From contig JAHLWX010000003.1 of assembly GCA_019057675.1 (NCBI GenBank), positions 1 through 48,677 of the forward strand: 48,677 bases of DNA, written 5' to 3'. A model generated the notes under the pieces. That model was not told where the DNA came from, searched no databases, and worked only from the letters and a program-made list of their open reading frames with translations. Numbering within the stretch: the stretch's first letter is position 1; every line of letters begins with the position of its first letter. The stretch is from Candidatus Jordarchaeum sp. LHC_1308 (GTDB lineage Archaea; Asgardarchaeota; Jordiarchaeia; Jordiarchaeales; Freyrarchaeaceae). Made by a program: the position numbers and the translations under genes. Positions 38,240-39,576 of this stretch are shown piece by piece.

Positions 38240-39576
38240 ATGAGCGAGAAAAAACCACACCTAAACATAGTAGTGATAGGGCACGTTGACCATGGGAAAA
38301 GCACGATGATGGGACACCTCTTATACTTGGCAAAGGTGATCGATGAACGTTTAATTAAACAGTACGAAGAAGAAGCAGAAAAAATTGGCAAGGGAAGTTT
38401 CAAGTATGCGTGGGTTATGGATAAATTGAAGGAGGAAAGAGAGCGAGGACTCACCATTGACCTTTCATTCTGGAAGTTCGAAACAGAAAAATACTACTTC
38501 ACAATAATCGATGCACCTGGGCACACGTAGGAAGCATTTTTGAGCTTCCTACGGCTTAAAAGGACTTTATCAAAAATATGATCACAGGTACTAGTCAGGC
38601 GGATGCAGCGATTCTAGTGGTTTCTGCTAGGAAAGGCGAGTTTGAGGCTGGTGTTGGTCCAGGTGGCCAGACAAGGGAGCATGCATATTTGGCGTTTACG
38701 TTGGGCGTTAACCAGATAGTCGTCGCAATTAATAAGATGGATGATGCCGGCGTTAACTGGAGTAAGGAAAGATATGATGAAGTGAGGAAAGAAGTTGAGG
38801 CTTTACTGAAGCAGGTTGGCTACAAGGTTGAAGAGATACCTTTTGTTCCAGTGTCTGCTTGGTATGGCGATAACCTTTTTGAGCGAAGCGACAAGATGCC
38901 ATGGTATAGTGGGCCGACGCTTGTTGAGGCGTTGAACAGCCTGAAAGTGCCATCCAAGCCCGTGGATAAGCCATTGAGAATTCCAGTACAGGATGTTTAC
39001 AGCATTACCGGTGTTGGGACGGTTCCGGTCGGCAGGGTGGAGACTGGGGTGTTAAAGGTTGGAGACACTGTAGTCTTTCAGCCAGCTAACGTGAAGGGTG
39101 AGGTGAAGTCGATCGAGATGCACCATGAGCCGCTTAGTGAAGCTTATCCAGGGGATAACATCGGGTTTAATGTGCGTGGCGTCTCGAAGAAGGATATTAA
39201 GCGTGGAGATGTTGCAGGTCACCCAGATAAGCCGCCCACCGTGGCTGAGAAGTTTGTTGGACAGATAATCGTTATTCAGCATCCTACGGCGATTGCTGCA
39301 GGGTATACGCCGGTGGTTCATGCGCACACAGCTCAGGTTGCATGCAGATTTGCAAAGCTCATTGCTAAGCTGGACAGACGAACTGGTCAAGTGGTGGAGG
39401 AAAACCCGAGTTACATTAAACGCGGCGACGCGGCACTTGTGGAGTTTGAGCCAGTGAGACCCATGGTGGTGGAGCCTTTCAAGGAGATCCCGCAACTGGG
39501 GCGTTTTGCGGTGCGTGACAGCGATTATACTGTTGCGGTCGGTGTTGTCAGGGAGGTTAAACCACGCGCTGCTTAA
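38240..39576 (+). CDS. tuf: Translation elongation factor aEF1-alpha, split by a 35-nt intron: join(38240..38524,38560..39576)
   Basis: Track ORFs 38222..38530 and 38578..39576 are the two halves, in different frames. Removing 38525..38559 gives ...[32 protein letters not shown]... G1 (GHVDHGKST), G3 (DAPGH) and G4 (NKMD) are all present. The product is 433 aa. ATG 38240 is preceded by a GGAGG element. Confidence 0.92.
38525..38559 (+). other. BHB-type intron in aEF1-alpha (35 nt)
   Basis: Structure: CCU GGGC[ACA]CGUAGGAAGC-auuuuuga-GCUUCCUACG GCUU[AAA]AGG. The inner helix is a perfect 10 bp (38526-35 with 38544-53). The central helix pairs 38519-22 with 38554-57 (2 G-C and 2 G.U). Two 3-nt bulges flank it. 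The outer helix is 3 bp (38516-18 with 38561-63). Cleavage gives CAC|AAG GAC. Confidence 0.85.

Follow-up and report, generated by a model that had tools for sequence, protein, structure and literature searches.

A probable endonuclease-type intron in the elongation factor aEF1-alpha gene of an Asgard archaeon, with companion introns in three other core genes

How does an archaeon obtain a working elongation factor from a gene whose reading frame closes at the catalytic His of switch II? The question is raised by the aEF1-alpha gene (EF1A; 38240-39576, + strand) of Candidatus Jordarchaeum sp. LHC_1308, an Asgard archaeon of the Jordarchaeia, a group named Freyarchaeia in PMC11291895. The gene lies on contig JAHLWX010000003.1 (assembly GCA_019057675.1), of which we analyzed positions 1 to 48,677 (hereafter the 48-kb window), and it is the only aEF1-alpha gene visible there. 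It is interrupted by 35 nucleotides (nt), ACGUAGGAAGCAUUUUUGAGCUUCCUACGGCUUAA, at 38525..38559 (+), which occur once in the window. Judged from sequence comparison and predicted folding, these 35 nt are very probably an intron of the pre-mRNA of the endonuclease type, that is, one marked by the motif termed bulge-helix-bulge (BHB).

Exon 1 (38240..38524, +; 95 codons) extends from the P-loop to the catalytic His of switch II and ends IIDAPGH (last codons GAT GCA CCT GGG CAC); the frame then reads ACG TAG, this stop (38528..38530, +) lying one codon into the insert. Exon 2 (38560..39576, +) begins AAG GAC TTT ATC AAA AAT ATG ATC ACA GGT and ends VKPRAA, with its stop at 39574-76; directly upstream its frame is closed by a TAA (38557..38559, +). 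The exon 2 frame is +2 relative to that of exon 1, and the two open stretches do not overlap. The earlier note on this DNA had placed the DAPGH end and both stops correctly to the base, and it had argued that no single frameshift can join the two halves, which holds: 38530 is the last base of the upstream frame, and the downstream one is open only from 38560. A frame broken by this TAG and the +2 offset is what characterizes a pre-mRNA intron of the cbf5 type.

Alternatively, ribosomes might bridge the two halves during translation, either by a programmed frameshift or by hopping across the hairpin as in gene 60. Immediately behind the break come a stop codon and then a stable hairpin, a layout superficially like the T4 gene 60 bypass signal. 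However, the two frames have no overlap, which frameshifting at a slippery site would need, and a hop would find no landing codon matching the take-off codon: no CAC or CAU occurs before 38560, and behind the ACG at 38551-53 stands GCU UAA. The sister introns described below would need shifts of +1, +2/-1 or 0 (with an in-frame stop) depending on the species, and no single mechanism fits them all. Recoding is thus extremely unlikely.

When the 35 nt (38525-38559) are removed in silico, a 1302-nt open reading frame (ORF) results that encodes a protein of 433 amino acids (aa). It matches the whole of the NCBIfam EF-1-alpha model TIGR00483 (725 bits, residues 1-431) and the whole of PRK12317 (728 bits), and it aligns without a gap across the junction to the Aeropyrum pernix aEF1A structure (PDB 3vmf, which has IIDAPGHRDFVKNMITG). 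The joint GGG CAC/AAG GAC gives GH/KD, and relatives also have K at that position. Removal of 38526-38560 instead leads to an identical mature sequence.

As called, the gene consists of fragments of 96 aa and 332 aa, the latter from an internal ATG at 38578, and the gene callers of other assemblies likewise report exon 1 as a 96-aa GTP_EFTU fragment. Both pieces are ORFs with start codons and are called as genes, so EF1A could be thought to be made as two polypeptides that assemble noncovalently. This would lose KDFIKN from switch II and cut the G domain beside the catalytic His, it would take the conserved internal Met of KNMITG, which is not a gene start, as the beginning of the 332-aa protein, and it would leave the BHB unexplained. 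We know of no split EF1A or EF-Tu, and we give this alternative very little credence.

The insert and its flanks can be folded into the strict form of the motif, hBHBh', with outer (h), central (H) and inner (h') helices. The exonic arms CCU (38516..38518) and AGG (38561..38563) pair as h, of 3 base pairs (bp). The 4-bp helix H joins exonic GGGC (38519..38522) to intronic GCUU (38554..38557) by 2 G-C and 2 G-U pairs, and h' comprises 10 Watson-Crick pairs between CGUAGGAAGC (38526..38535) and GCUUCCUACG (38544..38553), with an 8-nt terminal loop, AUUUUUGA (38536..38543; all on the + strand). Two 3-nt bulges, ACA (38523..38525, +) and AAA (38558..38560, +), lie on opposite strands with H between them. 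The strict form has h and h' of at least 2 bp each; here they have 3 and 10 bp. For 61- and 71-nt pieces, RNAfold gives this structure both as the minimum free energy (MFE) structure, at -21.2 and -22.2 kcal/mol, and as the centroid. The z-score is -3.8, and not one of 200 shuffles reaches this stability. The helices, bulges and pairings that the earlier note had described all stand, the local RNAfold prediction being the same structure.

The endonuclease cuts between the second and third bulge residues, a rule stated for verified cbf5 introns (PMC2738675); the predicted cleavages therefore fall at 38524/38525 and 38559/38560, the same positions that the protein alignment requires. Since strict motifs also occur by chance, the significance of the EF1A insert rests on the coincidence of motif and frame restoration rather than on the motif: the cut sites are one of the two equivalent position pairs that restore a gapless EF1A (~6e-8 per (x,y) pair). 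The insert is the most canonical signal among the four introns of the window.

Several points weigh against an intron. With G-U pairs allowed, an inner helix of at least 10 bp, an outer helix of at least 3 bp and a length of 12-150, we count 3 strict motifs in the window, compared with 0.8 expected in dinucleotide shuffles. Half of the pairs in the EF1A helix H are G-U and h has merely 3 bp. In a 291-nt context, the MFE structure (ensemble frequency 0.0001) keeps only the 10-bp hairpin, long-range pairs replacing H and h. The intron comes from a single 99.9%-identical population, without sequence variation from which covariation could be read. The Pfam maps of the window include neither the EndA (tRNA-splicing endonuclease) gene nor that of the ligase RtcB. 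Exact protein look-up found none of the spliced EF1A, Cbf5, Kae1 and L44e proteins, EF1A having been sought among about 15 billion proteins. Finally, only this window of the genome is in view, and a second EF1A copy elsewhere is possible.

That last point, together with the roughly 0.8 strict BHB-like motifs expected by chance per window, would suit a pseudogene: the copy would have been disrupted by a 35-nt insertion that is found in one species and absent from 91-94%-identical relatives, an intact EF1A would lie elsewhere, and the fold would be a coincidence. However, in comparison with L002, of the nearest sampled relative, the rate of nonsynonymous substitution (dN) is 0.036 and that of synonymous substitution (dS) about 1.15; by this ratio (dN/dS about 0.03), both exons are under strong purifying selection, and they carry no other lesion. 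Neither an intact allele (>94% identity) nor a close paralogue was found among about 15 billion proteins, the best full-length match being at 94% and from other samples. The same allele occurs in four assemblies, the cut sites of the motif match exactly the only splice that gives a gapless EF1A, and three other essential genes of the window bear the same kind of insert. A pseudogene is accordingly very unlikely. The canonical BHB intron in the G3/switch II motif with a CAC/AAG joint, as the earlier note had proposed, is supported by the geometry, by the in silico splice and by purifying selection.

The insert is not peculiar to one assembly. Four contigs contain the 332-aa exon 2 ORF, each time with the 96-aa exon 1 ORF beside it; their sources are ENA (ERZ27245635, 93.5 kb), Logan (SRR5468562) and JGI (3300017406, two samples). 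These contigs are 99.9% identical to the window, 2-3 single-nucleotide polymorphisms apart, and have the same 35 nt (L010, L011, L012). Being identical in independent assemblies, the insert is real DNA and not an assembly artefact, and the presence of the 35 nt in the genome, on which the earlier note had made its claim depend, is upheld. An origin as an assembly or sequencing artefact, or as a tiny DNA transposon resembling a miniature inverted-repeat transposable element (MITE), was suggested to us by the perfect 10-bp inverted repeat within the insert and by a genuine scaffolding artefact in the EF1A of the relative L001. The latter gene appears 'split' through a run of N (5902-6000 of JAWBUR010000001.1, GCA_038840935.1) flanked on either side by a duplication of about 230 nt; this is a gap left by scaffolding and not an intron, and the deposited protein is labeled 'partial'. 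The window insert is base-for-base identical in four assemblies from different pipelines (MEGAHIT/ENA, Logan, JGI and the window itself), has no target-site duplication, and has no second copy in the window or in 99 fetched loci, and so an artefact or a MITE is hardly conceivable.

Alignment of EF1-alpha genes across related genomes, which the earlier note had recommended, shows the insert to be lineage-specific and confined to one species-level population. The closest EF1A proteins, at 94% and 91% identity, come from metagenome-assembled genomes labeled Candidatus Jordarchaeales or Freyarchaeota; those of Baldr-, Odin- and Bathyarchaeia come next. At the insert site, the 94% relative reads CCG GGG CAT AAA GAC and the 91% relative CCC GGG CAC AAG GAC, both without an insert. 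The 332-aa fragment is the sole member of its 90% cluster. When 185,579 species-representative genomes were scanned with a degenerate, gapped DNA pattern that allows 15-45 nt between PGH and DF(I/V)KNMI, no true case emerged; the matches were false positives, comprising three DPANN EF1A genes without an insert, in which a downstream GTGACCTGG mimics the anchor, and two bacteria. A scan with longer anchors gave 0 matches in the JGI metagenome collection, which evidently lacks the JGI contig bearing the insert. As it is absent from the 91-94% relatives and from the scanned species genomes, the intron seems to have been gained recently, within a single species-level population. The outer-helix arm CCU, compared with CCG and CCC in relatives, could suggest synonymous flank changes that improve h; these are too few, and dS is too saturated, for this to serve as evidence.

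EF1A is not alone. The Pfam map shows the window to be a region of ribosomal-protein and translation genes in which three further genes are broken. The first is cbf5 (23346-24408, +), divided into ORFs at 23346-23624 (DKCLD domain) and 23644-24408 (TruB/PUA). Its 31-nt intron (23587-23617, +) has H formed by CACU/GGUG, bulges AGA and AAA, and a 10-bp inner helix; the cut separates the first letter of the catalytic Asp codon from the second (G/AC), and removal restores GTLDPKVTG. The position is that of the cDNA-verified crenarchaeal cbf5 intron (PMC2738675). The closest Cbf5 homologues (79-86% identity, Jordarchaeia) are all C-terminal fragments of 249-255 aa, whereas other Asgard and euryarchaeal Cbf5 proteins are full length; the intron is absent from cbf5 of other Asgard archaea. 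In three other species the insert measures 29, 30 and 30 nt, which with the 31 nt of the window makes three phases; in one species it is in frame yet contains a TGA. The first inner base pair switches from A-U to G-C among species, a compensatory change. The cbf5 intron is present in all sampled Jordarchaeia.

The second gene, rpl44e (24486-24791, +), is called merely as a 57-aa fragment. Its 30-nt intron, GCUCCUCUACAUUUUGUAGAGGAGGGGCAA (24641-24670, +), is in frame and holds a TAG; it forms a 9-bp stem with two AAG bulges and no outer helix. Removal restores the GYGSQPK junction and a full match to the L44e model, and in relatives the insert is 29 or 30 nt long, with compensatory C-G to U-A changes in the stem.

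The third, kae1 (Kae1/TsaD; 32921-34169, -), is split inside GPGLG/PCLR by a mini-intron of 13 nt (33684-33672, -), which takes the form of a bulge-helix-loop, GGGCC GGGG UU/AGGAAGCCCCUAA/A GGCCC; taking out the 13 nt restores GPGLGPCLR. Two other species need 14 nt removed, and there the 4-bp helix is kept by C-to-U changes (G-U pairs). The frame offset is +1 here and +2/-1 in those two species, so that no common frameshift mechanism can apply. An uninterrupted site is the normal state in 80 Kae1 genes of other archaea (55-64% identity), found by searching metagenome contigs with the spliced Kae1; this search, in which split matches rank lower, returned no Jordarchaeia and serves as the baseline. 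A heptamer, AGGAAGC, is common to the EF1A and kae1 introns, probably by chance (about 0.01 by a rough count).

Once spliced in silico, each of L44e, Cbf5 and Kae1 aligns with the full length of its NCBIfam equivalog as one uninterrupted match, compared with called fragments of 92 + 254 aa (Cbf5), 57 aa (L44e) and 104 + 243 aa (Kae1). The introns of cbf5, rpl44e and kae1 are conserved in related Jordarchaeia, while that of EF1A is not. Because only removal at the RNA level explains the variation in length and phase of these companion inserts, the lineage must splice mRNAs. All four introns interrupt invariant catalytic or binding motifs (GTLDP in Cbf5, GYG.Q.KP in L44e, GPGLGP in Kae1 and DAPGH in EF1A), and the 3' bulge is AAA in three of the four and AAG in rpl44e. 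The placement suggests retention, or targeting, where exon bases cannot drift. The window thus holds four introns among about 55 genes, all four in core information-processing genes, with that of EF1A gained within a species. It is a tentative proposal, for which the chances seem to us slightly under even, that endonuclease-spliced introns occur in protein-coding genes throughout the genome of this lineage and are still spreading.

In open-access papers and bioRxiv, the only pre-mRNA BHB introns on record are those of crenarchaeal cbf5 (Watanabe 2002; Yoshinari 2006; Yokobori 2009, PMC2738675), and a 2025 structural paper on EndA still cites the crenarchaeal cbf5 reports only. The same literature contains no report of introns in EF1A, rpl44e or kae1, or of mRNA introns in Asgard archaea. 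The EF1A intron is therefore new in its host gene and lineage and has a strict motif; the kind of intron is already known. Like that of EF1A, the crenarchaeal cbf5 intron has a BHB built partly of exon bases, is cut between bulge residues 2 and 3, lies within a catalytic motif and blocks translation if unspliced. In contrast, its hosts are Desulfurococcales and Sulfolobales rather than an Asgard archaeon, it is common to whole orders whereas the EF1A intron is confined to one species, and most cbf5 introns have relaxed motifs needing a heteromeric enzyme whereas the EF1A motif is strict hBHBh'.

The archaeal BHB introns of tRNA and rRNA share with EF1A the 3-nt bulges and the 4-bp helix, and presumably the same enzymes and chemistry; a length of 35 nt is typical of tRNA introns (11-175 nt). 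Unlike these, the EF1A substrate is an mRNA without a tRNA body, the reading frame constrains the accuracy of its splicing, and splicing must compete with coupled translation. A further parallel is the splicing of HAC1 and XBP1 by IRE1 with tRNA ligase or RtcB, in which protein enzymes, independently of the spliceosome, likewise take a short intron out of an mRNA (26 nt for XBP1); the reading frame is changed, and the ligase is of the RtcB type. There, however, the nuclease is IRE1, two stem-loops are recognized and splicing is a stress-regulated switch; no regulation is evident for EF1A. A group I or group II intron or another Rfam family was rejected, as the window has no match at E <= 0.1 and 35 nt is far too short.

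Archaeal EndA needs no tRNA body to recognize the BHB; the ends it leaves are a 2',3'-cyclic phosphate and a 5'-OH, and RtcB ligates exons and circularizes introns. The EF1A transcript would accordingly fold locally into the strict hBHBh', its central and outer helices drawing on exon bases; EndA would cut both bulges, and an RtcB-type ligase would join the exons and probably circularize the 35-nt intron. Unspliced RNA would give merely the 96-aa fragment that ends at the TAG at 38528-30. Asgard archaea have an (alpha-beta)2 EndA with an L1 loop that confers broad specificity (PMC5829648), and such an enzyme would handle the relaxed motifs of kae1 (bulge-helix-loop) and rpl44e (no outer helix) as well.

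Of the tRNA genes of Freyarchaeia, 92-95% have introns; a gene often has several of them, and they often lie at noncanonical sites (PMC11291895). BHB introns appear to proliferate in the lineage, and the simplest history would be a spill-over into mRNAs, the EF1A intron being a recent gain in one species that was kept since it is removed accurately. Inserts may survive at invariant motifs because the exon bases in H and h are not free to change there and because an inexact loss would kill the cell. A regulatory function may be added to this picture: the EF1A intron might be spliced and at the same time gate output through EndA/RtcB activity, the coupling of translation capacity to endonuclease and ligase that the earlier note had suggested, or through temperature-dependent folding of H and h. 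EF1A would indeed depend on splicing, H and h are marginal enough that their folding could respond to conditions, and the IRE1/RtcB splicing of HAC1 and XBP1 illustrates that tRNA-type ligation can regulate (PMC13149111). On the other side, the intron is not conserved and close relatives manage without it, and the presence of comparable introns in almost every tRNA, as well as in cbf5, rpl44e and kae1, points to proliferation and not to a dedicated switch. Such a regulator is unlikely; a regulatory role is possible, not indicated. A recently gained neutral or selfish intron is the simpler account, given its absence from the 91-94% relatives and the presence of introns in 92-95% of tRNA genes.

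Other scans of the window yielded further candidates. Generic scanners for a BHB combined with ORF merging were too permissive, producing hundreds of chance matches, whereas a hairpin-first scan (stem of at least 8) isolated EF1A, cbf5 and rpl44e cleanly; its one extra match, at eIF2-gamma/PIN, is a gene-boundary artefact. A BHB-like long-range pairing at 14983-15225 (+), with 8 bp in the outer and 10 bp in the inner helix, is treated as chance because half of it is G-U, it contains no DNA inverted repeat and it is antisense to a conserved ORF. Strict-motif matches at 16160-16296 and 38586-38661, whose inner helices also have 10 bp, would disrupt the proteins they lie in and are likewise taken as chance. 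ARAGORN and Rfam detect no tRNA or other RNA genes in the window.

Some features of the gene map are of interest in themselves. Within the ribosomal-protein operon (9394-22142, +), L6 and a conserved ORF of 190-220 aa are inverted (14258-15589, -) between S8 and L32e, an arrangement shared by the related genomes L093, L094, L096 and L097; the ORF beside L6 has no Pfam or NCBIfam match. The neighboring L32e ORF (15764-16453, +) is 229 aa long, of which the L32e domain occupies residues 30-135 only, and in relatives the C-terminal extension has an additional weak match to HHH_5, so in this lineage L32e appears to carry a fused helix-hairpin-helix tail. Eukaryote-like genes of a kind typical of Asgard archaea encode a Roadblock/LC7 protein (7496-8080, +), an EMC3/TMCO1-like insertase (21423-22142, +) and an STT3/AglB oligosaccharyltransferase (26032-28518, -), and they fit the taxonomic assignment. 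A conserved 377-aa ORF (42130-43263, -), syntenic in all relatives, stands between DCD and a methyltransferase/ATP-grasp fusion and has no match in Pfam or NCBIfam.

The most abundant translation factor of an Asgard archaeon thus appears to depend on tRNA-type splicing. If this is true, the making of every EF1A molecule requires EndA and RtcB, which places on the tRNA-splicing machinery a burden that is essential and heavier than expected. As close relatives lack the EF1A intron, the gain of a BHB intron in a protein gene becomes a datable recent event, and the mechanism of gain (reverse splicing, retro-insertion or duplication) becomes approachable. Since gene callers and NCBI annotation report such genes as fragments, completeness estimates based on marker genes and phylogenies for the class are affected. 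The cluster of four introns is a more far-reaching lead than the EF1A intron alone: if introns of this type do prove to be genome-wide, routine mRNA splicing would for the first time be seen in an archaeon, and in an Asgard relative of eukaryotes at that, which would face the problem of keeping ribosomes off unspliced mRNA. Splicing of mRNA by protein enzymes would then be placed in the archaeal group closest to eukaryotes, with a bearing on the origins of mRNA introns, on RtcB-dependent splicing of the HAC1/XBP1 type and on the separation of transcription from translation.

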